From contig LUCB01000002.1 in NCBI GenBank assembly GCA_001593865.1, positions 25,277 to 89,276 of the forward strand: a DNA stretch of 64,000 nt, read 5' to 3'. This document shows, one piece after another, positions 15,589 to 64,000 of this stretch. The stretch is from Candidatus Bathyarchaeota archaeon B24. Lineage in GTDB: Archaea; Thermoproteota; CALKCG01; B24. Both the position numbers and the translations under genes were made by a program. The notes under the pieces are model-generated. The model ran no database searches and was not told the DNA's origin. It saw only the letters and a list, made by a program, of their open reading frames with translations. Numbering within the stretch: the first letter of the stretch is position 1; each line of letters opens with the position of its first letter.

Positions 15589-15912
15589 TTGGGGTTGGTA
15601 GAGATGTCGGACATGCGTGCAAAGGTTAGGAAGCTTCAGGGTATAGTGGAGTCGGTCGAGAGAACAGGGGAGAAGATGGTCGATGAAAACGGTATCGAAT
15701 GGGAGAAGTGTATATACACCGTTAGGCTCGTAGGTTTTTCTAAGAGAACTCCTGAGGAGAGGTTGCCTAAGGAGCTTGAGGGTAAGCGGGTTAAGCTTGT
15801 TAGGTGGGCTGCCTTCGACTGGCACTTTAAGCTGGGTGTCAGGAAGACCCTTGAACCCGACGAGACCGAGGCTGTCTTAAGGGGGGAGAAGACCGAGACG
15901 GTGTTCTGGTAG
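15589..15912 (+). CDS. Hypothetical protein
   Basis: 107-aa ORF with a TATA-like box upstream. Confidence 0.35.
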   Translation: MGLVEMSDMRAKVRKLQGIVESVERTGEKMVDENGIEWEKCIYTVRLVGFSKRTPEERLPKELEGKRVKLVRWAAFDWHFKLGVRKTLEPDETEAVLRGEKTETVFW

Positions 15913-16013
15913 CTTCTAAAAATATTTCCAACCAACCTAGACCTTTTTAAACGGATATCGTGATCCCATAGATAAGGCTTATATCGGTTTTAAAGTCCTC
16001 TCCTTAAGGGAGC

Positions 16014-16481
16014 ATGTCGGTCTCCGCCTTTGAGAAGGTGTTTTTAAACGCGCTGAGGAGGACGCTTAGGGAACTCATGGAGTATGATGAGGGGTTCAAG
16101 AACGTTAGGGATGAGCTTAGGAGTCTCATGAGGAGGAGAGGCATAGGGGAGGATGAGGTGAGAAGGCTTATGGATCAGATACCACCCTACGTCTTCGGGT
16201 CTCTAGTAGCCGACATAGCCATAGGCGCGATATTAGAGGGGGCTTCTAGGGAGCTTATGATCCAGAAGATGATCGCGGATGTGGTCGTCAAAGCCTTCAG
16301 CGAGAAGGGAATCCAAACTCTGCTGGAACGCTGCAACATAGAGGCGGCTAAGAACATGCTGGGTGAGGAGAAGGTGGAGGAGGTAGCCGAGAGGATAACG
16401 ACCGAGGACATATTCCAGACAGACGAATACGAGGAGTTCTGCAAAACCATAGCCAAGCTTCTAGAGGAAACCCTAAAATAA
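16014..16481 (+). CDS. Hypothetical acidic helical protein
   Basis: 155-aa ORF ending 32 nt before the tRNA. Confidence 0.4.
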   Translation: MSVSAFEKVFLNALRRTLRELMEYDEGFKNVRDELRSLMRRRGIGEDEVRRLMDQIPPYVFGSLVADIAIGAILEGASRELMIQKMIADVVVKAFSEKGIQTLLERCNIEAAKNMLGEEKVEEVAERITTEDIFQTDEYEEFCKTIAKLLEETLK

Positions 16482-16512: not shown

Positions 16513-16599
16513 GCCGGGGTTGCGGAGCGGACAAACGCGCAGGCCTTGAGAGCCTGTGGGCCCTCCGGGCCCTCGTGGGTTCGAATCCCACCCCCGGCG
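16513..16599 (+). tRNA. tRNA-Ser (anticodon TGA), class II with long variable arm
   Basis: Acceptor stem GCCGGGG/CCCCGGC. Anticodon stem CAGGC/GCCTG with loop CTTGAGA (anticodon TGA). Long variable hairpin GGGCCCTCCGGGCCC. T-loop GTGGGTTCGAATCCCAC. Discriminator G. CCA not encoded. Confidence 0.85.
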
Positions 16600-16720
16600 C
16601 ATCTCTGTGAACCCGCGGTCTCTTTTAAAAACTTAGAGCCTTAGAAGCCTTGTGGGACGGCGTTCATGACTATTTAATGCTTGGGTAGGCTTATATCTAT
16701 CCCGTCGAATACTTTACGTT

Positions 16721-17032
16721 GTGGTTCCCATGGAGGCTATAGAGGAGCTCCTGTCCGAGAACCCTGTCCTAGCCAAAGCCGTAGCCTTAGAGGTCGTCGC
16801 GAGACGTAGGAGACAGCTTCTCGGCGAGCTTAGGAGGATCGAGGAGAGGATAAGGGAGTTCGAGTCCAAGCATGGTGCGTCTATCGAGGAGTACGAGCGG
16901 ACGATGGGGGACTCCTTCGAGGCGCATGAGGTATGGTTCGAGTGGAAGGCGCTGGTAGAGGTGAGGAAGTCTGTCGAGGAGGAGCTCAAGGGGCTTGAGA
17001 GAACGCTTAGAAAGCTTACTGGAAAGGTATAG
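16721..17032 (+). CDS. Small coiled-coil protein, first gene of a two-gene cassette (antitoxin-like?)
   Basis: Helical, charged repeats (RRRRQLLGELRRIEERIREFE). 38-nt overlap with the downstream gene. Confidence 0.4.
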   Translation: MVPMEAIEELLSENPVLAKAVALEVVARRRRQLLGELRRIEERIREFESKHGASIEEYERTMGDSFEAHEVWFEWKALVEVRKSVEEELKGLERTLRKLTGKV

Positions 17033-17372
17033 CGATATAATCGCTTCTGTCGAGGAGTTCAGCCTCGTCGAGAGGCCCGGAGTCGCCGTACTCAGGCTTA
17101 AGCTGAACCTCAGGGATGCGAGCACACTCTACATCCGCGAGATCTGGGTTCGCGGGAGGCTCGAAGCCTACAGCTACTACCGCATCGTGGAGGGAGAGGT
17201 ATCGGAAGGATGGAACAACGCTCGACATCATCCAGACATCCGAACCTTCCCCCACCACAAACACGTAGGTGGAAGAGTCGAACCCCTGGAAACTCCTTCG
17301 CTAGAAGCCTTCCTAGAGGCTGTGAGAAGAGCCTTAGAAGATCAGGCTGGAGAAGTAAGGGATCGAAGTTAG
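16995..17372 (+). CDS. Small protein with conserved His cluster (toxin-like?), second gene of the cassette
   Basis: WNNARHHPDIRTFPHHKHVGGRVEP histidine-rich motif (HEPN-like Rx4-6H possible). Confidence 0.4.
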   Translation: MRERLESLLERYSDIIASVEEFSLVERPGVAVLRLKLNLRDASTLYIREIWVRGRLEAYSYYRIVEGEVSEGWNNARHHPDIRTFPHHKHVGGRVEPLETPSLEAFLEAVRRALEDQAGEVRDRS

Positions 17373-38402: not shown

Positions 38403-39410
38403 ATGACAGTTATGGAAACTATCATAGAGAGGTCTAAAAAGAGACCTGGTAGAATAGTCTTACCCGAAGGCACTGACGAGAGGATTTTGAAAGCAGCCAG
38501 CGTAGCGGCGGAGACGGGTATAGCTAAGCCCGTGCTTCTGGGAAGAGAGGAAGACGTCAGAGACTTAGCGTCTAAACTGAACGTGAGCCTCGACGGTGTG
38601 GAGATCTTGAACCCTGAAACTTCTCCTAAACTCGGTGAATATGTCAAGCGTTATTTAGCCATAAGAAAGGGTAAACGTGTTACCGAAGCCATAGCCAGAA
38701 GGATCCTCAGAAAACCTCTCTTTTACGGTGCTATGATGGTCGGTGTAGGAGACGCGGACGGTATGGTAGCCGGAGCCGTGTCTCTGACGGCTAACGTCAT
38801 AAGAGCTGGACTGCTTTTGATAGGACTTGAGAAAGACATCTCGGTGCCTTCAAGCTTCTTTATAATGGAAACAAACAACAGGAACGTCGGAGAAGACGGT
38901 GTCCTCATATTCGCCGACGCCGCTGTGAACCCAGACCCGACTCCTGAACAGTTAGCCGACATAGCGGTGGCCTCTGCCAGGAGCGCACGAAGGCTTCTGG
39001 GATGGGAGCCTAGGGTAGCTCTACTATCCTTCTCGACTAAGGGCAGCGCGGCTCACCCGATGGTCGACAAAGTGGCCGAAGCCGTCAAGATAGCTAAATC
39101 CAAAGCACCTGACTTGGCGATAGATGGAGAGATGCAGGCCGACGCGGCTTTGATACCTGAGGTCGCGCGAAGGAAGATCAAGACAGGTCTTGGACCAGTC
39201 GCCGGGAGGGCTAACGTGTTGATATTTCCAGACCTCGATGCCGGCAATATCGCGTACAAGCTTGTCCAACACGTCTGCGGAGCTAAGGCATACGGTCCGA
39301 TACTCCAAGGGTTCTCAAAGCCTATCAGCGACCTCTCGAGGGGTGCTAAGGCCGACGAGATAGTAGGTGTCATAGCCGTGGTGAACCTCTTATCCATGAC
39401 GGAACACTAG
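38403..39410 (+). CDS. pta: Phosphate acetyltransferase (Pta/PtaB, phosphotransacylase)
   Basis: [17 protein letters not shown]-terminus. [10 protein letters not shown]. Confidence 0.85.
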
Positions 39411-39438: not shown

Positions 39439-40650
39439 TTGAAGGTGTTGGTGATAAACTGCGGAAGTTCTACGATAAAGTATAAGGTCTTCCAGGTTCA
39501 AGACGGTTCTACGCTTAAGGAGCTTGCATCGGGGCTTTTAGAGAGGATAGGGTCGGATAAATCCACGTTGACCCACCGTCGAGACGGAGAAACTTACAAG
39601 TTCGAACTCGAAGCTAAAGACCACAGAGAGGGCTTAGAGTCTATACTGAAGATCTTAACGAGCAAGGAGCACGGTGTTATAGAGGATCCTTCCGAAGTCT
39701 TCGCCGTAGGACATAGGGTCGTCCACGGTGGAGATTCCGTGTTTCAGCCGACCGTCATCACGGAAGACCTCCTTAACGTCATAAGACGGTGGAGCGATAT
39801 GGCACCACTGCATAATCCTGCGAACCTAGCGGGGATCGAAGCGGCGATCTCCCTACTTCCCGGAGCTCATCAGGTAGCCGTTTTCGATACTGCGTTTCAC
39901 CAGACGATGCCCGCAGAGGCTTATCTCTACGCGATACCGTACGAGTACTACGAGCGTTACAGGATACGACGATACGGTTTCCACGGCACCTCGCATAGGT
40001 ATGTGGCTTATAAAGCCGCCGAGGTTTTGAATAGAGACATCTCAGAACTTAAAATGGTCACATGCCACTTAGGGGCTGGATGCAGCATCACGGCCGTCTG
40101 CGGGGGTAAATCCATCGATACGAGTATGGGATTCACACCGCTCGAGGGACTTGTGATGGCTACCAGGTCTGGGGATATAGACCCATCTCTCATATTCTTC
40201 CTAGTTAGAAAAGAGGGATTAAACGTTGAGGAGGTGGAGAATCTACTGAACCGCAAGAGCGGGCTTCTAGGGCTTTCAGGGGTAAGCGGGGATGTACGGG
40301 ATATATGGAGGGAAGTCGAGAAGGGAAACCAAAGAGCGGAGCTGGCCATGAGGGTGTTCGCGTATAGGGTGAAGAAATACATAGGCGCCTACGCCGCCGC
40401 GATGGGAGGGCTCGACGCGATAGTGTTCACGGCGGGCATAGGTGAGAACGACTGGAGGACCAGGGAGCTCATATGCGAGGGACTTGAATATCTAGGCGTC
40501 AGACTCGATAAAAGGCTTAACCGTATGACATCTAAGGAGCCCAGGATCATAAGTAGTGACGACTCGAAGGTCAAGGTTCTAGTGATCCCGACAGACGAGG
40601 AGCTGGCTATAGCCTTAGAGACCTTAAACCTCCTGCTTAGAAAGAGATAA
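39439..40650 (+). CDS. ackA: Acetate kinase
   Basis: MKVLVINCGSSTIKYKVF. VVHGG. FHGTSH. 403 aa. Confidence 0.9.
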   Translation: MKVLVINCGSSTIKYKVFQVQDGSTLKELASGLLERIGSDKSTLTHRRDGETYKFELEAKDHREGLESILKILTSKEHGVIEDPSEVFAVGHRVVHGGDSVFQPTVITEDLLNVIRRWSDMAPLHNPANLAGIEAAISLLPGAHQVAVFDTAFHQTMPAEAYLYAIPYEYYERYRIRRYGFHGTSHRYVAYKAAEVLNRDISELKMVTCHLGAGCSITAVCGGKSIDTSMGFTPLEGLVMATRSGDIDPSLIFFLVRKEGLNVEEVENLLNRKSGLLGLSGVSGDVRDIWREVEKGNQRAELAMRVFAYRVKKYIGAYAAAMGGLDAIVFTAGIGENDWRTRELICEGLEYLGVRLDKRLNRMTSKEPRIISSDDSKVKVLVIPTDEELAIALETLNLLLRKR

Positions 40651-51296: not shown

Positions 51297-52562
51297 GTGA
51301 CCGTTCTGGATAAGTTAGGCGTCGGGTTCATAGGCTCAGGTTTCGCGACTAGATTCCATATACTCGGGTGGGTAGGGGTTAGAAACGCCGAGATAACTGC
51401 AATATATAATATTAGAGAGAGAAGCGCTCGTGAATTGGCTTCCTTAGCTGAACAGCTCGGAGTCGGTAAGCCCAAGGTTTATACAGACCTACACGCTATG
51501 CTCTCCGATAAGTCGGTCAACGCCGTTTGGATAGCTAACCCAAACTTCGTCAGGCTAGAGGTTGTGAAAGCTATAGCCGAGGAGGCTAAGCAAGGTAAAA
51601 CCGAGCTTGTCGGCGTATGCTGCGAAAAGCCTCTAGCTAGGAACGTGGACGAGGCTGAGGAGATGGTTAGACTGATCGAAGACTCAGGTCTGCTACACGG
51701 GTACCTCGAGAACCAGGTCTTCATGCCCTCGGTGGTTAAGGGTCGAGATATCTTATGGAGATACGGCGCCAAGTATACGGGTAGGCCTTACCTCGCTAGG
51801 GCTGCTGAGGAACACGGCGGTCCTCACTCAGCGTGGTTCTGGATACCGAGGCTTTCCGGCGGAGGTGTCATGCTTGACATGATGTGTCACAGCCTCGAGG
51901 CGGCTAGGTTCATACTCAGCGACCCTGATAAACCCAAGACCGCTCTTAAACCCAAGACCGTTTACGCGGAGATAGCGTCGCTTAAATGGGCCTGGGAGCC
52001 ATACCGGACTATGCTTAAAGACCGGTTTAAAGGGGAGGTCGACTACTCTAAGGAGCCTGCGGAGGATTACGCCATGGCCGTCGTCACCTATGAGGATGAA
52101 GACGGGAACTTAGTCGTTTCCGAGACCAGAACCTCTTGGAGCTTCACGGGACCGGGTTTAAGGCTGAGCTTCGAGGCCTTAGGCCCAGAATATTATATGT
52201 CTATCAACACCTTACAGCCTGAGCTCTTCACGTTCTTCAGCAGAAACGTTAAGATTCCGCCTTCGGAGGAGTTCGTCGAGAAGCAGGCCGCCGAGCAAGG
52301 TTTGATGCCGACTATACCGAACGAGGCATTCACATATGGCTACATGGATGAGGACCGTTATATGGTAGAGTGCTTCCTTAAGAGAGAGAAACCTAGAGAA
52401 GATTGGAGAGACGGTCTATTAATCGTTCAGCTCATGATGGCATGCTACATGTCCGCCGAGAAAGGCAGGAAGATACGGTTTAACCCTGAGGCTCTCAAAG
52501 GGTTTAAACCGGCCGTAGCTAAGGGACAGTGGAAACCTAAGTCTCTTGTAGAGGCTCCTTAG
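51297..52562 (+). CDS. Gfo/Idh/MocA family oxidoreductase (long form)
   Basis: GVGFIGSGFATRFH Rossmann N-terminus. EKP. 421 aa. Confidence 0.75.
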   Translation: MTVLDKLGVGFIGSGFATRFHILGWVGVRNAEITAIYNIRERSARELASLAEQLGVGKPKVYTDLHAMLSDKSVNAVWIANPNFVRLEVVKAIAEEAKQGKTELVGVCCEKPLARNVDEAEEMVRLIEDSGLLHGYLENQVFMPSVVKGRDILWRYGAKYTGRPYLARAAEEHGGPHSAWFWIPRLSGGGVMLDMMCHSLEAARFILSDPDKPKTALKPKTVYAEIASLKWAWEPYRTMLKDRFKGEVDYSKEPAEDYAMAVVTYEDEDGNLVVSETRTSWSFTGPGLRLSFEALGPEYYMSINTLQPELFTFFSRNVKIPPSEEFVEKQAAEQGLMPTIPNEAFTYGYMDEDRYMVECFLKREKPREDWRDGLLIVQLMMACYMSAEKGRKIRFNPEALKGFKPAVAKGQWKPKSLVEAP

Positions 52563-52758
52563 AGACCTCCTCGATAGCCAATATCTTTATTCTCTTTCTT
52601 TTCAACTTATGACGGCTTCCAAGCTCGGAGTATATCTTCTCCAGGGCGTGTTCAGGCTTTAGGGCTCTAACTTCTTTAACGAAAGTAGACCTTAGGAAGC
52701 CCATCGGCATTACTCCTTTAACCCGATACGTCTTAACCTCACTCATAACTCTCACCAA
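52537..52758 (-). CDS. rplX: Ribosomal protein LX (eL20/L18Ae family)
   Basis: KTYRVKGVM...VKEVRALKPEHALEKIYSELGSRHKLKRKRIKI matches the LX consensus (FRVKG...ALKPEDA...GSKHRVKR). Confidence 0.65.
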   Translation of the reverse strand: MVRVMSEVKTYRVKGVMPMGFLRSTFVKEVRALKPEHALEKIYSELGSRHKLKRKRIKILAIEEVSKEPLQET

Positions 52759-53416
52759 ACCCGAACGCCTGAGATATGGCTAACAACTCATCACCTAGAG
52801 TCCCCCTACCCACTACCCCACCTCTACTATTCACGACAAGCCCGACCTTCACATAAGGAAGACCGTTTACGACAGTTCCAGTGTGAACAGGGACTTTTAA
52901 AACCTTCTCTATGAGAGAGAGTTCGTCGCTTCTTATACCGGGGTGGGCATAGACCGCCTTGTTGGATGCCACCGCGGAGGAACCCACATACGGTAAGCCA
53001 GCGATCGTAGAGTATTCAACCTCGACATCTAAAACGTCCTCTATAGCCTCGGCTATAGACTCAGGCATCTTAAGGTCCACGACAGCGCCTCTATCGTTCG
53101 TCAAGACCCTGTTACCTAGGGCGATGTATGTCGGTAGCGACACAGCCTCGACGCCAAGTTGCTCCCTTATAAACCTAGCCTCATGCTCGCAACCTTCAGG
53201 TAACACTACACCGTTCGAGTTGGCTATAGATAACACCCCTAAGAGCTTAGACCCTCTGATCCTGATCCGTAGAGCGTCTTCAACCTCGAAACATCTTTTC
53301 AGAAACTTCACCTTGCTATCGCTCATCCCCTCAGGCACAAGTATGAAGCGGTCTGTAGCCACGATATACAACCCTACGTTAGGGTTACTCAAATACTGGA
53401 AATACTCCAGGGGCAT
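52739..53416 (-). CDS. eif6: Translation initiation factor 6 (aIF6)
   Basis: About 225 aa. Pentein repeats. N-terminus NPNVGLYIVATDRFILVP. Confidence 0.8.
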   Translation of the reverse strand: MPLEYFQYLSNPNVGLYIVATDRFILVPEGMSDSKVKFLKRCFEVEDALRIRIRGSKLLGVLSIANSNGVVLPEGCEHEARFIREQLGVEAVSLPTYIALGNRVLTNDRGAVVDLKMPESIAEAIEDVLDVEVEYSTIAGLPYVGSSAVASNKAVYAHPGIRSDELSLIEKVLKVPVHTGTVVNGLPYVKVGLVVNSRGGVVGRGTLGDELLAISQAFGFGESYE

Positions 53417-53429
53417 ACTAGGGACCCCT

Positions 53430-53702
53430 CTAACCCGCCAGCTTAAGCACGTACATGTCCTCCTCGGTCCTCTCAGCCTTAACCCTAACCTTCCTAGGCG
53501 GGTGTTTCAAACCTCTAGACCAGATGTACCTGTTTAACTCCTCATCTATCTTAACGTTTTCAGGATTAGTCTTAAGATGCCTCGCAGCCTGCTCCCTAAC
53601 AAACCTCACCGCTTTAGGAGCCCTAACGCGTCCAGAGTACTCCCAGATCCTTTTCAGATTTATGGTTATAACCCTTTCCTCAGAGGTCTCCTCACCACTC
53701 AA
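53430..53702 (-). CDS. rpl31e: Ribosomal protein eL31
   Basis: EERVITINLKR...RAPKAVRFVREQAARHL...NRYIWSRGLKHPPRKVRVK. Confidence 0.85.
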   Translation of the reverse strand: MSGEETSEERVITINLKRIWEYSGRVRAPKAVRFVREQAARHLKTNPENVKIDEELNRYIWSRGLKHPPRKVRVKAERTEEDMYVLKLAG

Positions 53703-53718
53703 GACCTAACACCCTCTC

Positions 53719-53880
53719 CTAAAGCTTGAGCTTTACGGCTCTCCAGTGCCTTCTCTTGGGGCTGGTTCTGACTCTACCCCTTGTCTTCAGAAAGACCCAG
53801 GTCGGTACAGGCCTATTCTGCTTAAGAGCCCTGGCGAGTCTCCTCTTCTTACCTGCAGGCTTACGAGTAGCCAATTTCAA
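53719..53880 (-). CDS. rpl39e: Ribosomal protein eL39 (53 aa), missing from the ORF track
   Basis: Hand translation: (M)[55 protein letters not shown] start 4 nt after a GGAGGG Shine-Dalgarno-like element. Confidence 0.7.
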
Positions 53881-54227
53881 ACCCTCCTGATCCGAATATC
53901 CCTCCTCTGAGACTTCTGTAGCAACACGAGGATCCTCTTAAGCTGTGCATCCGTTATAGGTGGGGTTATACGCCCCGTCTGGACGGCTTGAATAAGCTCA
54001 AGTTCAAGCTTCTCGACGAACTCAGGTCTAACCATCCGGAGGTTATTAAGCCTCTGCCTAGCCTCCGGTGTGAGTATGATGCGTAAGGCCGCCTGTTTTC
54101 TGGCTTCAAAGGCTTTCCTAGCCTCTGCCGCCCTACGTTCCTCCTCAAGCCTTCTTTGAAGCTCGATAAGTCTCCTACGCTTAAGTTCCTCAAGCTCCTC
54201 GTCGTATCCATAACCTTCAGCCGTCAC
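53877..54227 (-). CDS. PDCD5/TFAR19-like dsDNA-binding protein
   Basis: About 116 aa. Charged N-terminal helix and C-terminal helical bundle. Conserved position between S19e and L39e. Confidence 0.6.
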
Positions 54228-54238
54228 GAAAGCTCACC

Positions 54239-54694
54239 TCAAGCTAAAGCAGCTAGACCACCGCTCGTCTTAAGCTTTCTTAGTATGTCTGCGGCTAGGC
54301 TATCTAGGAGACTTCGACCTTTACTCGTTAAGACTCTACCTTTCTTATCTAGTTTGGTCACTAAACCGGCCTCCTCAAGCTGCTGAAGTATCTTCCTTAT
54401 ATGGTTTCTCCCGGCTTTTCTGAAGTGCGGTGGTTTACGCCCCCTCCTCTGCCTACCACCATATATCGTGGCCAACCTAGAGACACCGAGTGGGCCTTTA
54501 ACATAGAGTTTACGCAGGATCGACGCGGCTCTAACATACCACCAGTCGGGATTGTCGGGATTTCTCTCCCTATGACACCCAGTCTTAACGAACAAAGCCC
54601 AAGGAGGCGGATTAACCTCGGGAAAGCTTACCTTGAGCTCCTCAGCTAGCCTATTTATCAACACATCGGCCGGAACCTCGTAGACGGTCGGCAA
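54239..54694 (-). CDS. rps19e: Ribosomal protein eS19
   Basis: PPWALFVKTGCHRERNPDNPDWWYVRAASILRKLY...TIYGGRQRRG. Confidence 0.9.
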   Translation of the reverse strand: MPTVYEVPADVLINRLAEELKVSFPEVNPPPWALFVKTGCHRERNPDNPDWWYVRAASILRKLYVKGPLGVSRLATIYGGRQRRGRKPPHFRKAGRNHIRKILQQLEEAGLVTKLDKKGRVLTSKGRSLLDSLAADILRKLKTSGGLAALA

Positions 54695-54980
54695 GCTTCA
54701 ACACCCCATGAAATTTCTCCCTATACTGCTCTCAGGGATAACGAATAACCAGACGGTTCGATTTAAACCTTTACTATAAATTCGCTACCAGTCTTTTAGA
54801 CTATGTAGTAGGCTTTTTCTAGAAACGCCTCCGAAAATTTCAGAGCAGGGATAAGCCTGACAGTGACCGTTAGAGGATATATTTTTAAATACCATTAATC
54901 GTCGAGGTTCAAAGAATAAAAGGTATAGGAATTCATCATCTTCGAAGAGAGGGACTATGGTAAAAATCTCCTAAGGAGAG

Positions 54981-55910
54981 TTAAAGTTCTATCAGTTTCT
55001 CAACGTTCTTCCAAGCATCTCTAATGGTCGAAACGCCTTCTAAGAACTTACGCGTCTCCCAGTCGTCCATAGACCACTCAACTATCTTTCTAACCGCTCC
55101 ACGTCCTGCTTCGAAGGGAACACCTATGCTCACGTCTTGGACCCCGTATTCGCCGTCTAAAACCAACGACGCTAAGCCTAGTCCCTCACCTTTAACTAGA
55201 GACCTTATCAGCGCCACCGTACAGTTCGCAGGAGCATACACGGTTGCACCCTTCCGTGATATAACATCCAAAGCCTTGCCCCTGAGTTCCTCGACGACCC
55301 TCGTCTTCTCTGTTTGAGACAGGTCGACTGGTTTGCCCATGATTTTAAGCCTACTGAACAACGGAACCTGGTTTCGCCCATGTTCTCCTATGACGTATCC
55401 ATCGACGTCTTTAGGCTTAACGTTGAATTTTTTGGCGATTATAATCCTGAACCTAGACGTATCCAACAGGCTTGAACTTCCCAAAACCCTGAAACGGTCT
55501 AGACCCGTAACCCTCCAGGTTATCAGGTTCATCAAATCCACCGGGTTAGTGACCGTAACCACAAACCCTTCGAAACCAGAATCTCTGAGCCTCTGGGCAA
55601 TATCGGCGATTATCTTAGCATTCACGCGAGCCAGCTCGAGCCTACTCTTCATGGAAGGCGTCCTAGGTTTTCCAGCGGTTACGACCACGAAATCGGCGTC
55701 TGCTATGTCCTCATAGTCTCCCACTCTAACCTCCGTATCGGATACCATAGCCGAGGCTTGTCGAATATCCATAGCCTGGCCCTCTGCGAGATGTTTGACT
55801 ATATCTACGAGAATAAGCTCGTCCACAAGCCCTTCTACGGCAAGTTTAAACGCTATACAGGAGCCTACGTTGCCTACACCTATCACAGCCGCTTTAACCA
55901 TATCGACCAA
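54981..55910 (-). CDS. mdh: Malate dehydrogenase (LDH-like family)
   Basis: KAAVIGVGNVGS Rossmann N-terminus. 309 aa. Confidence 0.8.
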   Translation of the reverse strand: MVDMVKAAVIGVGNVGSCIAFKLAVEGLVDELILVDIVKHLAEGQAMDIRQASAMVSDTEVRVGDYEDIADADFVVVTAGKPRTPSMKSRLELARVNAKIIADIAQRLRDSGFEGFVVTVTNPVDLMNLITWRVTGLDRFRVLGSSSLLDTSRFRIIIAKKFNVKPKDVDGYVIGEHGRNQVPLFSRLKIMGKPVDLSQTEKTRVVEELRGKALDVISRKGATVYAPANCTVALIRSLVKGEGLGLASLVLDGEYGVQDVSIGVPFEAGRGAVRKIVEWSMDDWETRKFLEGVSTIRDAWKNVEKLIEL

Positions 55911-55991
55911 CTCAACTTTTATTATACACCCCTAGATATTCATTTTTAACCCAGAGACGCAGTTGGATTAGATAAGGCTCGGTGGTAATAC

Positions 55992-58733
55992 TTGGACGAA
56001 AGCCTATTCGAGGTCGAGGTCTTCAGACGAGAAGGGTTCGTTAGAAAGACCTGTAAACGGTGCGGTAGAAGGTTCTGGACCTTAAACCCTGATCAAGAAC
56101 TCTGCGGGGACCAGCCTTGTGTGGAGTACGGTTTCATAGGAAACCCGCCTAAGGCAAATAGCTTCGATAAGAGAAGCCTAAGAGAGGCCTTCCTTGGCTT
56201 TTTCGAGAGGAACGGACATGGTAGAGTCAGGAGATACCCCGTCGTGGCCAGATGGAGGGAGGACGTATACCTAGTAGGTGCTTCCATATACGACTTCCAG
56301 CCGTGGGTTACCAGCGGCGTGGTCCCCCCACCTGCGAACCCCCTCACGATCTCGCAGCCCTCGATAAGGTTCACAGACCTCGAAAACGTAGGCCGAACAG
56401 GACGTCACCTCACAGGGTTCGAGATGATGGCTCACCACGCGTTTAACATAGGGGGAAGACGAGTATACTGGAACGATGAGACGGTCGACTACTGCTTCAG
56501 GTTTTACAGAGATGTCGTAGGCCTGAACCCAGAGGAGCTGACTTTCATAGAGGATTTCTGGTCTGGGGGCGGTAACGCGGGTGAAGACTTCGAGGTCGTA
56601 GTTAGAGGAGGCGAGGTCGCTACACTAGTGTTCATGCACTATAAAGTAGGTGAAGACGGTTCGCTGAGACCTATGGAGAACATGATAGTCGATACCGGCT
56701 ATGGGCTTGAGAGAAACCTATGGATACTTCAAGGGAAACCCAACATATATGAAACCGTCTACGGGGAACTCGTAGAAAAGCTTAGAGCCGAAGCCGGTGT
56801 AGAGAAAGTCGATGAGCGGATTCTATTAGAGGTATCGAAGGTCGCCGGGATGATGGATGTTAAAGAAGAGAAAGCTCTAGAAGAAGTTAAGTCGAGAGTT
56901 GCCTCCAAGGTGGGTTTAACGCTTGAAGATGTCGAGAAACTCCTTAGGCCATACGAGTTGATCTATAGGATAGCGGATCACAGCTATACGCTTGCTTGGA
57001 TGCTCGGAGACGGGGTCGTACCGTCTAACACGGGTGCAGGCTACTTGGCCAGACTCTTGATAAGGAGATGTCTAAGAGCCATGGACGAGCTGGGTTTGAA
57101 GATCGACCTAGGTTGGATAGTAAGTTATCAGCTTAAAGAGCTAGCTCCAGATTTCCCAGAACTTCTGGAGGCCGAGGATAACATCGTCGAGATGCTTGAG
57201 CTTGAGGCTAAGCGATATCGGGAGAGTCTCGATAGGGCTTTGAAGATCGCCGTGAGAATCGTGAAAAGTGGTAAGAAGAGCCTCACTGTGGACGACCTCA
57301 TAATGCTCTACGACTCCCACGGACTCCCACCGGAACTTCTTAAAGATAGGTTATCCCCTCTGGGAGTGAAAGTGAGTGTGCCACGGAACTTCTACGAGCT
57401 TGTGGCCAAGATCCATGAAAGACCTGAGCGGAGGAGGGTTGAAGAAGAGCACATACTTAGAAAGGTCTTAGAGAACTTGCCTAAGACCAGGCGGATATAC
57501 CTCGAAGACGGGAAGATTAGGAGGTTTAAAGCTAGGGTTTTAAGGGTTTTAGGAGACTGGGTTGTATTGGATGGGACGGCGTTTTATCCGACCAGTGGAG
57601 GACAGCTACACGATACAGGTGTCTTGAGATGCGGCGGAGGGGCTGGGAAGATCGTGGACGTGAGGGACGTGGATGGGGTCATAGTTCACAAGGTTAAAGG
57701 AGTGAAGCCTAGCGTCGGTGAGCAGGTTGAGTGCGAGATAGACTGGGATAGAAGAATGGCTTTAACTAGGCATCATACTGCGACCCACATATTGATGGGT
57801 GCGGCTAGAAGGGTTTTAGGCCCTCACGTCTGGCAAACCGGCGCAGAAAAAACAGCCGAGAAAGCTAGACTCGATATAACCCATTATAAAAGCATCACCC
57901 GCGAGGAGCTGGAGCAGATAGAGCTACTAGCCAATAAGGTGGTGGTCGAAAATAGGCCTGTGAAAACCTTTATGATTCCGAGGGATGAGGCTGAAAAGAG
58001 GTATGGGTTTAGGCTCTACCAGGGAGGGGTTTATCCGGGTAGGGTTATACGGGTCGTCGAGATAGAGGGTTGGGACGCCGAGGCGTGCGGTGGAACCCAC
58101 TGCGAGAGGACGGGAGAAGTCGGGTTGATAAAAATCATAGGTGTGGATAGAATTCAGGATGGGGTTGAACGGCTTGAATACGTCGCAGGCGAGCAGGCGC
58201 TTAGATACCTACAAACGAGGCTCAGGGCTTTAGAGGAGGCCTCGAACCTTCTCAGAAGCCCCGCAGATAAGCTTAAAGAGTCTGTTACGAAACTACTGGA
58301 GGAGCTTAAAGCCGAGAGAAGAAGAGTCGAAAACCTGAGAAGACGGCTCGTGGAAGCTAGGATTAGCTCCGTCGTCGAGAATCTTCTAGAGGTGGATGGA
58401 GTTAAACTCGCCATTCAGAGGAGGGTCGACGAAGAAACGGACACCGTGATAGCTGAAGCAAATACCTTGGTCAACCGGTTTCCCGAGACCGTAGCGATAT
58501 ACTTCTTGGTCAGGAGGGGAAAGGCTAGGATCGTAGTGATGGTCGGTGACAAGGCTAAAGAAGCCGGTTTAAACGCCGGGATAATTGCCCGCAGACTAGC
58601 CACCATATGCGGAGGCAAGGCAGGAGGCTCCATAAGGCTGGGCCAAGGAGGAGGGCTAGACGCTTCTAGAATACCTAGTGAAAAGGAAATTTTAGAGGAA
58701 GTGTTGAAAACTAAAGCTGGAACGCCTTCCTGA
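55992..58733 (+). CDS. alaS: Alanine--tRNA ligase
   Basis: 913 aa. Editing-domain HxxxH...CGGTH motifs (HHTATH, CGGTHC). Archaeal N-terminal Zn-finger-like CKRCGRRFW. Confidence 0.9.
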   Translation: MDESLFEVEVFRREGFVRKTCKRCGRRFWTLNPDQELCGDQPCVEYGFIGNPPKANSFDKRSLREAFLGFFERNGHGRVRRYPVVARWREDVYLVGASIYDFQPWVTSGVVPPPANPLTISQPSIRFTDLENVGRTGRHLTGFEMMAHHAFNIGGRRVYWNDETVDYCFRFYRDVVGLNPEELTFIEDFWSGGGNAGEDFEVVVRGGEVATLVFMHYKVGEDGSLRPMENMIVDTGYGLERNLWILQGKPNIYETVYGELVEKLRAEAGVEKVDERILLEVSKVAGMMDVKEEKALEEVKSRVASKVGLTLEDVEKLLRPYELIYRIADHSYTLAWMLGDGVVPSNTGAGYLARLLIRRCLRAMDELGLKIDLGWIVSYQLKELAPDFPELLEAEDNIVEMLELEAKRYRESLDRALKIAVRIVKSGKKSLTVDDLIMLYDSHGLPPELLKDRLSPLGVKVSVPRNFYELVAKIHERPERRRVEEEHILRKVLENLPKTRRIYLEDGKIRRFKARVLRVLGDWVVLDGTAFYPTSGGQLHDTGVLRCGGGAGKIVDVRDVDGVIVHKVKGVKPSVGEQVECEIDWDRRMALTRHHTATHILMGAARRVLGPHVWQTGAEKTAEKARLDITHYKSITREELEQIELLANKVVVENRPVKTFMIPRDEAEKRYGFRLYQGGVYPGRVIRVVEIEGWDAEACGGTHCERTGEVGLIKIIGVDRIQDGVERLEYVAGEQALRYLQTRLRALEEASNLLRSPADKLKESVTKLLEELKAERRRVENLRRRLVEARISSVVENLLEVDGVKLAIQRRVDEETDTVIAEANTLVNRFPETVAIYFLVRRGKARIVVMVGDKAKEAGLNAGIIARRLATICGGKAGGSIRLGQGGGLDASRIPSEKEILEEVLKTKAGTPS

Positions 58734-59154
58734 TTTTGTACTCTATGAACCTCCTAGGTAAGGCTCCTATGATCCTGTCTACTTCTATGCCATCTTTAAA
58801 CATTATGAGAGTCGGTATACTCATCACCCCGAACTTAGCGGCTGTCGCAGGGTTCTCGTCGACGTTAAGTCTACCGAAAGACACCACACCAGCATAAGCT
58901 TCCGCAAGTTCGTGGAAGATGGGCTCTATCATCCTACATGGAGCACACCACGGAGCCCAAAAATCTACGACAAGCCTACTATGCTCTTTAACCACCGAGT
59001 TGAAGTTACTGTCGTTAACCTTTAAAACCTTAGGTTTCGATGGTTTGCCCCCCTTCTCCCTCAAAACCTTTTTAAGAAGCTCCTTCAGCTTCTTCTCCTT
59101 AATTCTCTCAAGCTCCTCGTCGGACATACGAATCAGCATACAGACGACTTTCAC
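58711..59154 (-). CDS. trx: Thioredoxin with charged N-terminal extension
   Basis: WAPWCAPCR active site. Confidence 0.85.
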   Translation of the reverse strand: MKVVCMLIRMSDEELERIKEKKLKELLKKVLREKGGKPSKPKVLKVNDSNFNSVVKEHSRLVVDFWAPWCAPCRMIEPIFHELAEAYAGVVSFGRLNVDENPATAAKFGVMSIPTLIMFKDGIEVDRIIGALPRRFIEYKIRKAFQL

Positions 59155-59261
59155 ATAAAGATATCGCTTGAGCGACCAGGAAAGTCTCAGAGAGAAGACC
59201 GGGGGTTCAGCCAGTATGCCCTTTCATCCTTCTTCCCAGGAGCGCTTTCAGGCGGAAGTCA

Positions 59262-59283
59262 GATGAGAGGAGCTCCTCTCATC
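59262..59283. promoter_or_regulatory. Perfect 22-bp palindrome GATGAGAGGAG|CTCCTCTCATC between the transporter 3' end and the thioredoxin promoter
   Basis: Read directly: 11-bp arms with no spacer. Confidence 0.6.
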
Positions 59284-59334
59284 ACCCATATTGATCAGAT
59301 GGGAAAGGACTAAGGGTTAAAGTTTACTACGTCG

Positions 59335-60744
59335 TCACATTAGGGGGGCTTGAAGTATGAGCAGGACGATAGCCAACGTTATGGTTAGAAGCGTTATTAA
59401 ACTTCCGTATTTAATCCAATCCTTGAAAGATATCGTTTGAATACCGCGTTTTTCGAGTATCCCCATGGCCACTATGTTGGCGGTGCTTCCGATCAGGGTT
59501 AGGTTTCCGAAGTAGGTACCGGCGAAAAGCACACCCCACCATAATAGATTCTCTTTGAAACCGACGTTGCCGAAAGCTTCGACTATAGGAGCTATCGTAG
59601 CTACGGCTAGAACGTTATCTAGGAAAGCGCTCAGAATCCCAGTCATAGCTATGAGCGTGATAAGAACCGTAACTTCGCCACCTGGTACGTGAGATAAGGC
59701 TTCGGCTACGACCTCCGTAATACCTACATATTCTAACGCTCCGACCGAGGCGAAGAGCATGATAAAGAACACCATATCCGCCCATTCGACCCTATGCTCT
59801 ATTATCTCCCGTACCCTACCACGCTCTATGAGCAACGCCAACCCAGCCATAGACAAGACCACGCCTAACAGTAAACTGTTTTTCTTTAGACCTAACAGGT
59901 TTTCTAGAGGGCTATAGAGGGCTAAACCGATTACCGTGCCAAAGAAAACTATCCCCGACTCCATAAGTTCTCTGGAGGTTATCTCAAGCCCCCCACCGAC
60001 CTCCCTATCCTCAGCCTTAAGCTTTATAGACTTATCGAGCTGTTCAATCTCTTTTTTAAAAACTCGCAAACAAACCTCTATGCACAGAATTAGGCTTAGG
60101 AGGGAGATGGGAGTAGCCCATCTTATGAAGTCATTGAAGGTTAACCCGCTTTTTAAGGCTATAAGGACGCCTACCGGATTGCCCATAACAGTCGCGCTGC
60201 TTCCTATGTTGGAGGCAAAGACGCTCATAACCACGTAGGGGACGGGGTTTAGCTTGTAGTATCTTGCTATGCTGAGTATAGATACGGTCATGAATAATGC
60301 AGAGGATATGGTGCCAACCAGAGCCGAGAATATGCCTGAGATTAGCATTAGAATCCTGATTAGTCTTCTAGCGTCGGAGCCGAATTTGGCGACTATCAGG
60401 TTCATTAGATACCCGAAAAAATGCCGCTCCTCTAAGAACCCCACGATTATCATCGTGGCGACTAAGAATAACACTACATCTATGTTTGCGAATTTTATAA
60501 GACTTGGAACATCTATTAAACCGAACGAAAGGAGTAAAAATACTCCGAGCATAGCTATAGGAATTCTGATGGACCAAAATAGTATGATCGACGAAATCAC
60601 CGTTGAGAATATCGTTATCGTAAGGATTTGACGGTAGTTTAAACCGGCTAGAGCCGATAGGGCCAAGAGCACCATCATCGAGCCTATCAGGACGCTTAGC
60701 TTAACCTTACCCTCCATAGAGGACCTCCTGGACGATATCGACAC
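59335..60744 (-). CDS. ArsB/NhaD (CitMHS/DASS-like) superfamily ion transporter
   Basis: 469 aa. Two repeated 5-6-TM halves. Anion-permease-like. Confidence 0.6.
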   Translation of the reverse strand: MSISSRRSSMEGKVKLSVLIGSMMVLLALSALAGLNYRQILTITIFSTVISSIILFWSIRIPIAMLGVFLLLSFGLIDVPSLIKFANIDVVLFLVATMIIVGFLEERHFFGYLMNLIVAKFGSDARRLIRILMLISGIFSALVGTISSALFMTVSILSIARYYKLNPVPYVVMSVFASNIGSSATVMGNPVGVLIALKSGLTFNDFIRWATPISLLSLILCIEVCLRVFKKEIEQLDKSIKLKAEDREVGGGLEITSRELMESGIVFFGTVIGLALYSPLENLLGLKKNSLLLGVVLSMAGLALLIERGRVREIIEHRVEWADMVFFIMLFASVGALEYVGITEVVAEALSHVPGGEVTVLITLIAMTGILSAFLDNVLAVATIAPIVEAFGNVGFKENLLWWGVLFAGTYFGNLTLIGSTANIVAMGILEKRGIQTISFKDWIKYGSLITLLTITLAIVLLILQAPLM

Positions 60745-60846
60745 GATAAATTGTGAGGGCTGAATTAAATGTTACCCTTCGGTATAATATGCAAAAACCT
60801 TCGGGCGAAAGTCTTATAGTTAAGCTGTCTAGCCTATAGAATTGGC

Positions 60847-61590
60847 TTGAAGCTTCTAGTCAGCGTCGTAGACGAGGAGGAGGCCTACGAGGCTGTTAGA
60901 GGTGGATGCGATATTCTGGATATTAAGAACCCCAGGGAGGGCTCTCTAGGGGCAAACCATCCATCCGTTATAAAACGGATAGTCGAGAGGTTTAACGGTG
61001 AGGTGGAGGTCAGTGCAACTATAGGGGACCTGCCGAACCTGCCTGGTACTGCTTCTCTTGCGGCTTTAGGAGCTGCGTCGCTCGGTGTGGATTACATAAA
61101 GGCGGGGTTGTACGGCGTTAAGGAGCCTGAAGATGCTTTGAATCTCATGAGCTGGGTTGTGAAGTCTGTCAAAGAAACCTATCCAAACGTTAGGGTTATA
61201 GCGTGCGGCTACGCCGACTACTATAACATCGGCTCTCTAAACCCAGCTTATCTTCCGTCGGTAGCGTGGAGAAGCAGGGCAGATGGAATACTCATAGACG
61301 TTAAAGGTAAGGGTCACGGAAACGTGTTCGACCACTTAGACGTGGAAGAACTCACTCGGATATTCTCGGAGGCTAGACGTCTGGGTTTGATAACGGCTTT
61401 AGCCGGTGGATTGGAGGCTGAAGACGTAGCCGTAGTCGATAAGGTCGGTGTAGACGTGTTGGGTGTTAGGAGAGGTGTATGCGATACCAGGAGCTGGATA
61501 GGTGGAAGGGTGAGGTCTGAGAAAGTTATAGTTCTTAAAAGGTTGCTAAAAGAGCTTAGGCATGGACCAGTATCGCGTCCTCGCCCATAA
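60847..61590 (+). CDS. mfnB: (5-formylfuran-3-yl)methyl phosphate synthase MfnB-like (methanofuran biosynthesis)
   Basis: KLLVSVVDEEEAYEAVRGGCDILDIKNPREGSLGANHPSVI...TIGDLP...SLAALGAA...DYIKAGLYGV is collinear with characterised MfnB. Confidence 0.75.
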   Translation: MKLLVSVVDEEEAYEAVRGGCDILDIKNPREGSLGANHPSVIKRIVERFNGEVEVSATIGDLPNLPGTASLAALGAASLGVDYIKAGLYGVKEPEDALNLMSWVVKSVKETYPNVRVIACGYADYYNIGSLNPAYLPSVAWRSRADGILIDVKGKGHGNVFDHLDVEELTRIFSEARRLGLITALAGGLEAEDVAVVDKVGVDVLGVRRGVCDTRSWIGGRVRSEKVIVLKRLLKELRHGPVSRPRP

Positions 61591-62116
61591 GGTTCTCGGC
61601 TAAAGTCTTCGCTGTCTCTCTGATTACCATCCCCTCTGGATTTGGTCGAGAAGCTTCGACATCTAACATGGTAAACTGGAGGAGGTCTATAGAAGACCTC
61701 TGTACATCTTCTACGATGTTTAAGCTCGTCTTCAAGGTGAAGTCCATGAGCTTTTCGATTTCATCCATGCCCTCCTCCATAGACCCGACCGGTAAAAACT
61801 CGCGAATCTCTGATAGGGTCGTAAGACGTATTATCGACCTTTCGAGCGATAGACAGGCTCTCGACATGAGTTTGAGTATGCGTTCAACCTCTACGATCTC
61901 AGAGACGTACATGGAGGCTCTGAACCCATCACCCGCGGCATAGGCTACTAAGTACCGAGCGTAGAGCCGTTTCCTATAGCGTTTAGCTTTATAAATCAAA
62001 TACTCCAGCCGTTCTAAACCCTCATCGAGCTTAGAGATCAATTCTTTAAAGCCGACCTTTAACCATCTCCTGGCGGCTCTAAAAAACATCGTGTTCAAGA
62101 ATTGGAAATCATACAC
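61556..62116 (-). CDS. Hypothetical helical protein (possible Snf7/ESCRT-III-like)
   Basis: All-helical. Basic N-terminal half and acidic C-terminal half. Weak call. Confidence 0.25.
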   Translation of the reverse strand: MYDFQFLNTMFFRAARRWLKVGFKELISKLDEGLERLEYLIYKAKRYRKRLYARYLVAYAAGDGFRASMYVSEIVEVERILKLMSRACLSLERSIIRLTTLSEIREFLPVGSMEEGMDEIEKLMDFTLKTSLNIVEDVQRSSIDLLQFTMLDVEASRPNPEGMVIRETAKTLAENLMGEDAILVHA

Positions 62117-62277
62117 AATATATAGAATTGTTTAGCGACGCCAGCGAAATCTAGTCTAACATCTGCCATGTTATTTAAAGAGTATTGAGCTTGAACACCC
62201 GTAGGGTAATATCGACAAAACATCTGGGATATACGCTGAACTCTAGAAAAGTTGAACACGTTTATAAGTAAACTCTT

Positions 62278-62925
62278 TCAGTTTAGAAGAACCTCGGTGC
62301 ATATCGTTTCGATGTCTCTTAAGACTTCTTCGACCCTCTGCGGTTTAAACCCGTTAACCACGTAGCACCTCATCGTTAATCCCTCAGCGACCTCCGGGAA
62401 GTAGCTGTCTAAACAAGAGCGGTTCCTCCTAAGCCAGTCCAAGTCTACGGTTTTCATAAGCCTACCTTGTCCATCGTAAATACCGTCGACATCCTTGACC
62501 AGTATGAGCTTCTTAGCCTTAAGAAGCCATGCAATATAGACCGAGATGCTATCCGAGGTTACGTCCCATGACGGAGGAAAGGGGTCCTTCAGCTCTAAAA
62601 GCCTATGCGGGATCAGCACGGGTAAAAAACCCTTATGATGAACTACTAAACACTCCTCGATCGCATAGACAGGAATTGCTCTAGGAGTTATGTCTGCTAT
62701 AAGTAGCCCATACTGAGACATGGCCAATATAGCCATCTTATGAGCCGCCAACTCAGAAAGCCTGAAGACCCTATAGCACATCCTCACGCTATCTGCGAAC
62801 GAACCCCCACCTGGTACGATCACAAACTCATAGTTCGAAGCTAACGCGCTTAGCCTGAGACATAGCCTTTTAAAAGCGGTGGGTCTCCGGCTTAAGCTTC
62901 CCCCGACTTTCACGACAACCTCCAA
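62278..62925 (-). CDS. Amino-acid-kinase-fold small kinase, MfnE-like ([5-(aminomethyl)furan-3-yl]methyl phosphate kinase) or IPK-like
   Basis: VVKVGGS N-terminus. VPGGGSF. VKDVDGIYDG (AAK-fold nucleotide-site motifs). 215 aa. Overlaps the next gene by 16 nt. Confidence 0.5.
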   Translation of the reverse strand: MEVVVKVGGSLSRRPTAFKRLCLRLSALASNYEFVIVPGGGSFADSVRMCYRVFRLSELAAHKMAILAMSQYGLLIADITPRAIPVYAIEECLVVHHKGFLPVLIPHRLLELKDPFPPSWDVTSDSISVYIAWLLKAKKLILVKDVDGIYDGQGRLMKTVDLDWLRRNRSCLDSYFPEVAEGLTMRCYVVNGFKPQRVEEVLRDIETICTEVLLN

Positions 62926-63986
62926 TTTCTAAGCTCCCTCCCCTTCAGAAACTCAGCCGCCATGAGTGCCAACGCATAGGAGGGTGTGGCCTTAGCCGCC
63001 TCAGACCCTATAAACCGCGATAACGGCTTAACGTCTTTAAACCCGAACATCTTCAGAGCCTTACCGGCTATGAACTCTCCACCGACCCCTGCGACATAGG
63101 CTGGACTAGTTTTCAGGTCGACCTTGAGGCTGTTTGTTAATCTCTTCAATGCCTCTAATATTTGACCCAATTGAGCTTCGTAGACGTAGGAAGCTATGGT
63201 CTTGACCTCTTCCATCGATAATAGGTCAAGGTCGGCGCACACAACCCTAGCCACCCTAGCGGCCGCCTCGACCATTGAAACACCCCTACCGTCTGGTGTA
63301 TCGACCGTGTAGTCTTCGGCGGTGATGTGCCCGAGGAGCAGATGGATGTCGCCTGATTGGGCGAAGAACTCTGAGGAAACCGGTGTGGAAACACCTCTAA
63401 CAGGTACGTGGGACACTATGGCTGCGACGTTCGTCCTTAACGCGCCGGTATACACGAGTTCTCCAGCCATAAGCTTCTCCAGGTCGTTAAGACCTTTGGC
63501 AGCGACCTTGCCTTCGACCACGGGGACTATCGAGGTCGAGGTGCTACCCGTGTCTACTAGGAGGCATGTGTCAGATAGCTTAGAGGCAAGCCATCCCGAC
63601 GCATACCAGTTAGCCGCGGCGACCTCTAGAGGATGTTTTCTAGCCTCGTCTGGAGTCAAAAGCCTACCGTGGACATCTAGAAACCTAAGGTCCAGGGTGG
63701 GCATGGCCTTCTCGACCGAGTCTATTATATGGTTAACGCCCTCTCTCTTCGAGAAATAGACGTCGGATAGTTCAGCCGTCATCGTTATGGCAGCTAGATC
63801 AGGTCTGGTAGACCCAACCCGTTCGACCATGGACTTAAGCTTATAGGGAAGCTTCTCCCGACCTCTCTTCCATACCGGGAAGTACTCTGCGAATATCTTG
63901 ACATCCGATACGGCATATCCTCTACATCGTATGACCGTTAGCTTTATGTTTGCTCCTCCGATATCCCATCCCAGGACAACCGTCAT
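62910..63986 (-). CDS. Hydantoinase/oxoprolinase-related ASKHA-fold protein of the H4MPT-linked C1-transfer-pathway type (MfnF-like)
   Basis: LGWDIGGANIKL N-terminus (ASKHA phosphate-1 motif). 358 aa. Operonic with the MfnE-like gene and next to mfnB. Confidence 0.5.
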   Translation of the reverse strand: MTVVLGWDIGGANIKLTVIRCRGYAVSDVKIFAEYFPVWKRGREKLPYKLKSMVERVGSTRPDLAAITMTAELSDVYFSKREGVNHIIDSVEKAMPTLDLRFLDVHGRLLTPDEARKHPLEVAAANWYASGWLASKLSDTCLLVDTGSTSTSIVPVVEGKVAAKGLNDLEKLMAGELVYTGALRTNVAAIVSHVPVRGVSTPVSSEFFAQSGDIHLLLGHITAEDYTVDTPDGRGVSMVEAAARVARVVCADLDLLSMEEVKTIASYVYEAQLGQILEALKRLTNSLKVDLKTSPAYVAGVGGEFIAGKALKMFGFKDVKPLSRFIGSEAAKATPSYALALMAAEFLKGRELRNWRLS

Positions 63987-64000
63987 GAGACTTCACACCC

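Follow-up and report, generated by a model that had tools for sequence, protein, structure and literature searches.

The 64,000-nucleotide stretch of contig LUCB01000002.1 from Candidatus Bathyarchaeota archaeon B24 (here called the window, meaning the whole stretch) carries near its end three genes that very probably encode the methanofuran biosynthesis enzymes MfnB, MfnE and MfnF. Our analysis supports the view that they belong to a cluster of core-biosynthesis genes for methanofuran (MFR), the CO2-capturing coenzyme of archaeal carbon fixation, from an uncultured hydrothermal-vent Bathyarchaeon, and that this cluster is cut by the window end. From sequence comparison, we put the probability that the three gene products are these enzymes, and that they act by the mechanisms of the characterised Mfn enzymes, at roughly 85%. 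All three open reading frames (ORFs) that a first-pass annotation of the letters had pointed out are present: mfnB at 60847-61590 on the plus strand, and mfnE at 62278-62913 and mfnF at 62910-63986 on the minus strand.

The 247 amino acids (aa) encoded by mfnB have the features of an MfnB-type synthase of 4-HFC-P, the phosphate of 4-(hydroxymethyl)-2-furancarboxaldehyde. Residues 3-227 match PF04476 (4HFCP_synth) with an E-value of 3.9e-69 and 233 bits (cut-off 22.4), and the top NCBIfam matches are both MfnB models, with 252 and 243 bits, while two non-MfnB 'hypothetical protein' subfamily models reach 134 and 109 bits, well under the 252 bits for MfnB. The alignment to MJ1099 of Methanocaldococcus jannaschii (PDB 4RC1) runs through residues 2-235 without a gap (46% identity, E 6e-56), and translation from the TTG start at 60847 yields an N-terminus that is collinear with that of MJ1099, so that the collinearity with MfnB proposed from the letters holds. 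D25, K27, K85, D151 and K155 are identical and occupy the same positions in both proteins. For D25, K27, K85 and D151, Wang et al. (2015, Biochemistry) reportedly established catalytic or substrate-binding roles. The fifth residue, K155, has been described as the catalytic and substrate-binding residue in a source that also names R217 and names none of the other four (PMC11365854).

The product of mfnE (211 aa from a GTG start at 62913) is a predicted kinase of the amino-acid-kinase fold for [5-(aminomethyl)furan-3-yl]methyl phosphate (F1-P). It matches PF00696 (AA_kinase) with an E-value of 2.9e-20 and 73 bits, and the NCBIfam models separate the possible functions: MfnE (NF040622) scores 148 bits, versus 34 for isopentenyl-phosphate kinase, 33 for ArgB and 25 for PyrH. 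The match to the archaeal isopentenyl-phosphate kinase model (NF040647) is confined to residues 122-157 and stays below its cut-off of 120 bits. Among all solved structures the sole strong relative is PDB 7QRH (E 4e-35), whereas isopentenyl-phosphate kinase and UMP kinase reach 3e-4, and the segments VKVGGSL, VPGGGSFAD and KDVDGIYD align with 7QRH (common motifs KxGGS, PGGG and DVDGIYD). A literature search with the code 7QRH retrieved no paper.

The third gene, mfnF, encodes a 358-aa protein of the acetate and sugar kinase/Hsp70/actin (ASKHA) superfamily, the predicted synthase of the glutamylated core compound 4-[[4-(2-aminoethyl)phenoxy]methyl]-2-furanmethanamine-glutamate (APMF-Glu). Its only strong domain is PF01968 (Hydantoinase_A, E 1.7e-33), and over residues 5-343 it passes the cut-off of TIGR03123, the 'probable H4MPT-linked C1 transfer pathway protein' (321 versus 244 bits; H4MPT, tetrahydromethanopterin), with the MfnF model as the second NCBIfam match (262 bits). 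The only solved relative is Q6M145 of Methanococcus maripaludis (PDB 3C0B, E 8e-60), with which it has the motifs DIGGAN and VDxGSTxT in common. The sequences of the two solved relatives pass the NCBIfam equivalog cut-offs for MfnE (7QRH, 344 versus 300 bits) and MfnF (3C0B, 559 versus 520 bits), and thus the nearest structural relatives of the two window proteins are bona fide methanogen MfnE and MfnF. MfnF-family proteins are abundant (at least 4,989 at E ≤ 1e-10), and their sources often call them 'H4MPT-linked C1 transfer pathway protein'.

Some of the evidence weighs against these assignments. The products stay below the trusted cut-offs of the corresponding NCBIfam equivalog models, which are trained on methanogens: 252 versus 304 bits for MfnB (NF002575), 148 versus 300 bits for MfnE, 262 versus 520 bits for MfnF, and 123 versus 400 bits for an MfnD-like protein (MfnD, tyramine-glutamate ligase) encoded upstream. 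In addition, homologues of mfnA and mfnC were found neither within the window nor in the following 10 kb. The subthreshold scores of both minus-strand proteins, and the public name 'hydantoinase/oxoprolinase family protein' that is commonly given to the ASKHA protein, would also suit a reading in which an isopentenyl-phosphate kinase or other kinase and a hydantoinase or oxoprolinase lie near mfnB by chance. However, the kinase is separated from isopentenyl-phosphate kinases both by the profile scores (148 versus 34 bits, with a cut-off of 120) and by the structure matches (4e-35 versus 3e-4). True hydantoinases and oxoprolinases of the HyuA type have about 680 aa, carry a Hydant_A_N domain at the N-terminus in addition to Hydantoinase_A, and usually have a HyuB partner. 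The ASKHA protein has a single domain, passes TIGR03123 and matches Hydantoinase_A but no hydantoinase model in NCBIfam, and no HyuB-type neighbour is present among the window ORFs or on the extended contig described below. Furthermore, the two genes are linked to mfnB in every sufficiently long locus, through many rearrangements. The grouping of the two proteins with MfnE and MfnF, on which the first-pass annotation had made its proposal depend, is therefore borne out, and a chance association of unrelated genes is effectively refuted and in our estimate highly improbable.

The longest ORF of mfnE extends from a TTG at 62925 to 62278 and would overlap the longest ORF of mfnF by 16 nt. With the GTG at 62913 the overlap shrinks to 4 nt (GTGA). 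The mfnE gene is most likely 62278-62913, because this GTG is preceded at a distance of 5 nt by GGAGG, overlaps the mfnF stop codon (TGA, 62912-62910), and is the start used in the gene call of a metagenome contig. The same arrangement recurs at the other end of mfnF, where the TGA of a further upstream gene shares nucleotides with its ATG at 63986 (ATGA). The final 18 nt of the window (63983-64000, minus strand) are the 3' end of that gene, and the C-terminus encoded by them (GCEVS followed by the stop) is identical to that of the MfnD-like protein mentioned above. The claim of an overlapping operon at 62278-63986 was thus right in that the amino-acid-kinase-fold and ASKHA genes are coupled, and wrong about its beginning, because the gene cluster continues upstream of 63986.

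This continuation could be followed on a second contig. An exact-protein look-up of MfnF led to a 53.7-kb contig (L001) of the hydrothermal-vent metagenome SRR3223410 (PRJNA312413), which is 99.6% identical to the window across 11,091 bp. The window matches two separate ENA contigs of SRR3223410, namely at 1-12510 with 99.8% and at 52911-64000 with 99.6% identity. Since it spans both of them, it represents a more contiguous assembly from the same population, to which the SRR3223410 contigs k127_389017 and k127_126092 belong. The gene directly upstream of mfnF (L001:8835-10004) encodes an ATP-grasp_3 ligase of 389 aa with MfnD as its best NCBIfam match (123 bits), and is preceded at a distance of 12 nt by the first gene of the operon (L001:8100-8822, equivalent to about 65165-65887 of the window). 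The latter encodes a 240-aa HisA/HisF-like barrel of the Orf17/MJ0703 family (TIGR00734, 137 bits), which keeps both HisA/HisF catalytic aspartates (IPVLD and SLDLR). The transcription unit is thus hisA/F-like, mfnD-like, mfnF and mfnE, with mfnB convergent to it, and the last three genes of the unit are joined through 4-nt start/stop overlaps, an arrangement of translational coupling. Divergent from the operon, on the minus strand of L001, lies a gene for a RimK/LysX-like ATP-grasp ligase of 372 aa (L001:6900-8018). It scores best to LysX yet below every family cut-off, and adjoins genes for LysM and homocitrate synthase; the protein could be LysX or a ligase for the glutamate tail of methanofuran akin to MyfB. 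Farther upstream the contig carries a small AdoMet_dc-family gene and the genes for homocitrate synthase, LysM, an acetyl-CoA synthetase of the ADP-forming type (ACD) and a DRTGG-domain protein. The latter two adjoin each other (L001:1209-4434), and the DRTGG-domain protein, which stands alone, consists of AAA_26 and DRTGG and is similar to what long Pta enzymes have as their N-terminal half.

The conservation of the cluster was analysed with a synteny set of 24 non-redundant loci, 16 of which were obtained by a genome scan and the others by exact-protein look-ups of MfnF homologues (47-62% identity). The HisA/F-like, MfnD-like, MfnF, MfnE and MfnB proteins are encoded together in every locus that is long enough, although the five genes occur in at least eight orders or orientations; in all of these loci mfnF and mfnE stand side by side on one strand, and mfnB is no more than 2.1 kb away. 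Most of the loci are from Bathyarchaeia, joined by one Baldrarchaeota and one 'Thermoprotei' metagenome-assembled genome (MAG), and in one locus (L027) a methenyl-H4MPT cyclohydrolase gene lies two genes away from mfnB. The window itself is archaeal by content (ribosomal proteins L1, P0 and P1, Rpr2, NEP1, HerA-NurA, prefoldin). The scan of the GTDB species genomes with MfnF yielded 16 loci, every one from a Bathyarchaeia MAG, and the guess that the DNA is from Bathyarchaeia was thus right as taxonomy. The top matches are 70-71% identical and originate from Chinese hot springs; the genome of the source organism itself lies outside the GTDB species set that was scanned, in which the closest match is 71% identical.

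By analogy with the enzymes of M. jannaschii, MfnB would convert a pair of glyceraldehyde-3-phosphate molecules via a Schiff-base lysine to the furan 4-HFC-P, an MfnC-type aminotransferase that the window does not encode would turn 4-HFC-P into F1-P, MfnE would use ATP to convert F1-P to the diphosphate F1-PP, and MfnF would let the phenol group of gamma-glutamyltyramine displace the diphosphate of F1-PP, giving APMF-Glu, the core with its ether bond. As a source of gamma-glutamyltyramine we propose the MfnD-like ATP-grasp ligase encoded directly upstream; transcription of mfnB would run from a separate promoter towards the operon. The resulting cofactor would be used by formyl-MFR dehydrogenase and Ftr, with which the methyl branch of the archaeal H4MPT-type Wood-Ljungdahl pathway begins. 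The proteins have the same folds as MfnB (MJ1099), MfnE (MJ0458), MfnF (MJ0840) and MfnD (MJ0815) of M. jannaschii, the best profile match of each is the corresponding Mfn enzyme, and the motifs for nucleotide binding and for the ASKHA phosphate loop that the solved methanogen homologues show are preserved in MfnE and MfnF. Unlike in M. jannaschii, where the mfn genes are presumably dispersed, as the locus numbers suggest, the genes stand in a cluster with translational coupling, and the host belongs to a non-methanogenic lineage of Thermoproteota.

It should be noted that MfnA to MfnF build the core of archaeal methanofuran, and that Orf22, Orf21 and Orf9 of Methylorubrum extorquens are homologues of MfnB, MfnE and MfnF (Hemmann et al. 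2021, PMC8141765). Among archaea, the bathyarchaeial cluster corresponds to the 'archaeal-like' H4MPT/methylofuran gene island of that bacterium, in which genes for the furan synthase, the amino-acid-kinase-fold kinase, the ASKHA enzyme, a PF00977 barrel and ATP-grasp glutamate ligases are likewise clustered (PMC8141765). The two systems differ in that the M. extorquens island is bacterial and serves aerobic formaldehyde oxidation, that its cofactor contains tyrosine and a long branched polyglutamate tail, and that M. extorquens lacks the MfnD homologue that is present in the Bathyarchaeon. The barrel of the bacterial island, Orf17 (PF00977, a homologue of MJ0703), is essential for methylofuran and probably acts at an early step (PMC8141765). 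Its role was previously shown only genetically and in a bacterium, and the archaeal synteny supports a function in methanofuran rather than methanopterin biosynthesis, which can be regarded as a modest lead. Much closer are the Bathyarchaeia MAGs QZM_A2_bin_24 and DRTY-6_201901_bins_74 (both Family-1.3, PMC8407382). They are collinear with L001 over about 17 kb, from the DRTGG-domain gene and ACD to the alanyl-tRNA synthetase gene, with protein identities of 37-83% overall, the HisA/F-like and Mfn proteins lying at 50-71%. These hot-spring relatives differ from the window organism in two features that they lack, a CitMHS/ArsB-type transporter gene between mfnB and the thioredoxin gene trx, and the pair pta-ackA.

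The formation of tyramine, for which mfnA would be expected, could be assigned to the small AdoMet_dc-family gene (L001:6522-6857), which lies about 3.1 kb past the window end and encodes a protein with the fold of S-adenosylmethionine decarboxylase (AdoMetDC). Such a protein, of 111-134 aa, is encoded along with the mfn cluster in 12 loci, where three configurations occur (besides L001, the gene is found in L003-L009, L016, L018, L021, L022 and L027). The operon begins with this gene in L009 and L027, and in the latter (L027:4761-5141) there is a 4-nt overlap with the hisA/F-like gene. The family alignment has an invariant Glu-Ser-Gly-Val, a Tyr, a Trp and Asp-Ile-Tyr-x-Cys (ESGV...Y.W...DIY.C). 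The Glu-Ser site of cleavage is retained, and so is the Cys of class-1b AdoMetDC. The His residues of the canonical motif are substituted. An AlphaFold model (predicted local distance difference test score, pLDDT, 83) superimposes on the AdoMetDC of Thermotoga maritima with a template-modelling (TM) score of 0.68. Three loci (L011, L029 and L030) lack this gene and have instead one for an MfnA-type pyridoxal-phosphate-dependent decarboxylase (PF00282), which lies between mfnB and mfnD in L011 and 3-4 kb away, among coenzyme A genes, in L029 and L030. Co-occurrence of the two genes was found in none of the fetched loci, and nine loci have neither of them nearby.

Within the fetched loci, this distribution suggests that the AdoMetDC-fold protein is a non-orthologous replacement of MfnA. 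An extended proposal is that the HisA/F-like barrel and the AdoMetDC-fold protein together fill the open steps of the methanofuran pathway, the latter as a pyruvoyl-dependent decarboxylase of tyrosine or of a tyrosine-containing intermediate in place of MfnA; this is tentative, and we would not be surprised to see it fail. The family is broad and graded. A word-indexed homologue search retrieved 6 proteins, while an exhaustive profile search retrieved 844 representatives with E ≤ 1e-3, of which 122 had E ≤ 1e-10, and they show no clean boundary between subfamilies. AdoMetDC homologues have turned into arginine and ornithine decarboxylases (PMC10407285), and a literature search for pyruvoyl, tyramine and methanofuran found no report of a tyrosine decarboxylase with this fold. 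If the proposal is true, it would be the third neofunctionalisation of AdoMetDC, and in any case the gene is a testable candidate for tyramine formation where an mfn cluster occurs without mfnA.

The lack of an MfnA-type decarboxylase nearby also bears on the identity of the cofactor. The same genes might make a different furan coenzyme that is nearer to bacterial methylofuran, with another aromatic unit or another polyglutamate tail, and with a MyfA-like ligase in place of a strict tyramine:glutamate ligase. The core and the tail of methylofuran differ between lineages, its glutamates being added by MyfA and MyfB, which are ATP-grasp ligases (PMC8141765). In the Bathyarchaeon, the MfnD-like protein exceeds the MfnD model by about 100 aa in length (389 aa versus 288 positions) and reaches only 123 bits, and the lineage has the second, RimK/LysX-like ligase divergent from the mfn operon. 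Nevertheless, MfnD is still the top profile match of the ATP-grasp ligase, and the RimK-like protein, best matched by LysX and encoded beside LysM and homocitrate synthase, may belong to lysine biosynthesis. A methylofuran-like coenzyme is thus unlikely in our judgement, and methanofuran is the preferred product.

The function of methanofuran in this organism is best viewed against the genomics of its class. Genes linked to H4MPT and MFR have been noted in Bathyarchaeota since 2015-2016 (PMC5020050; PMC7886697), and most families of Bathyarchaeia, including the lineage of QZM_A2_bin_24, are reported to have a complete H4MPT-type Wood-Ljungdahl pathway (PMC8407382). QZM_A2_bin_24 (Family-1.3, Qi et al. 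2021), which is among the closest relatives of the window with about 70% identity, is tabulated with fwdA-D, ftr, mch, mtd, mer and cdhA-C as single copies, with cdhD and cdhE in two copies each, and without pta or ackA (PMC8407382). The supplements of that study contain no rows for mfnA, speD or mfnB. The identification of methanofuran genes is therefore expected in a lineage that is already known for this chemistry and adds nothing beyond published Bathyarchaeia genomics. It does indicate, on the basis of genes, that a vent Bathyarchaeon may make its own methanofuran, a prerequisite of the H4MPT-type Wood-Ljungdahl pathway inferred for the class.

The first-pass annotation had taken a gene for MtrH as additional evidence for H4MPT-dependent metabolism. 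A stand-alone mtrH is present at 14586-15506 on the minus strand (PF02007, 293 bits), and its product narrowly passes TIGR01114 (275.7 versus 271.4 bits); however, it scores no less well to the tetrahydrofolate-type MtgA model (315 bits) than to the MtrH models, so that it is weak evidence by itself. The gene is coupled by a 4-nt overlap to a gene for a radical SAM protein similar to PA0069/Rv2578c, and the pair extends over 13693-15506 (minus strand). Absence of mcr and mtrA-G had also been claimed, and indeed no such family was detected in the family scan, which covered the window ORFs in 1-51234 and 58711-63986, or among the precomputed genes tabulated for 52910-64000; the four ORFs at 51297-52758 lie outside the scan. 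On a locus that flanks the window past its start (L019), no C1-pathway genes were found. The presence of a bacterial-type pta-ackA pair was confirmed: pta (38403-39410, 358 bits versus a cut-off of 311) and ackA (39439-40650, 520 versus 293 bits) are adjacent on the plus strand. Reported pta/ack genes are confined to hydrothermal-vent families, Family-1.3 among them (PMC8407382), and the window is placed in a pta-ackA-bearing, putatively acetogenic lineage.

The cofactor could also serve oxidative C1 metabolism, in which methyl groups would be transferred by MtrH and a corrinoid protein to methyl-H4MPT and oxidised via formyl-MFR to CO2, while Pta-AckA and ACD would form acetate fermentatively. 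The H4MPT C1 pathway is reversible in known archaea, a stand-alone MtrH above the TIGR01114 cut-off with no MtrA-G nearby is typical of methyl-transfer systems, and ACD is encoded in addition to Pta-AckA. However, the genes beside mtrH include none that could be recognised as encoding a corrinoid protein or a substrate-specific methyltransferase, the direction of the flux is not derivable from gene content, and reductive acetogenesis has been proposed for relatives among the Bathyarchaeia (PMC8407382; PMC7886697). An oxidative role is therefore possible but doubtful.

Two further genes flank mfnB. A weakly CdvB1/B2 (ESCRT-III)-like ORF of 186 aa at 61556-62116 on the minus strand sits between mfnE and mfnB and overlaps the 3' end of mfnB with its own 3' end by 35 nt. 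Its likely start is the ATG at 62089 (177 aa), which is preceded at about 30 nt by an AT-rich TATA-like box. It has no Pfam match and reaches 41 bits with the NCBIfam CdvB1/B2 model (E 1.7e-10). The gene is fast-evolving: it occurs at this position in the closest relatives only (L003-L006 and L008), with 37-39% identity, compared with 60-70% for its neighbours. A conserved cluster member was considered and rejected, since a DUF8196 gene at the same position in the Baldrarchaeota locus has no similarity to it (E 1.8), and it is probably an unrelated insert outside the methanofuran pathway. On the other side of mfnB, the CitMHS/ArsB-type anion transporter gene (59335-60744, minus strand) lies between it and the thioredoxin gene. 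A tblastn search with the transporter against the fetched relative loci gave no match, and the gap between mfnB and trx is about 0.8-1.1 kb in L003, L005 and L006, which is below the 1.4 kb of the transporter gene (L004 and L008 have no trx match); the gene looks like a lineage-specific insertion.

Scans of 60600-64000 for bacterial-type promoters and terminators found none, as expected for an archaeon. Scans for tRNAs and Rfam families detected a single tRNA-Ser (TGA) at 16513-16600 on the plus strand, the only tRNA of the window. Several small ORFs around 15589-16481 have no family match, and close to them and to the tRNA lies a gene with a TumE-like toxin domain (16995-17372, plus strand).

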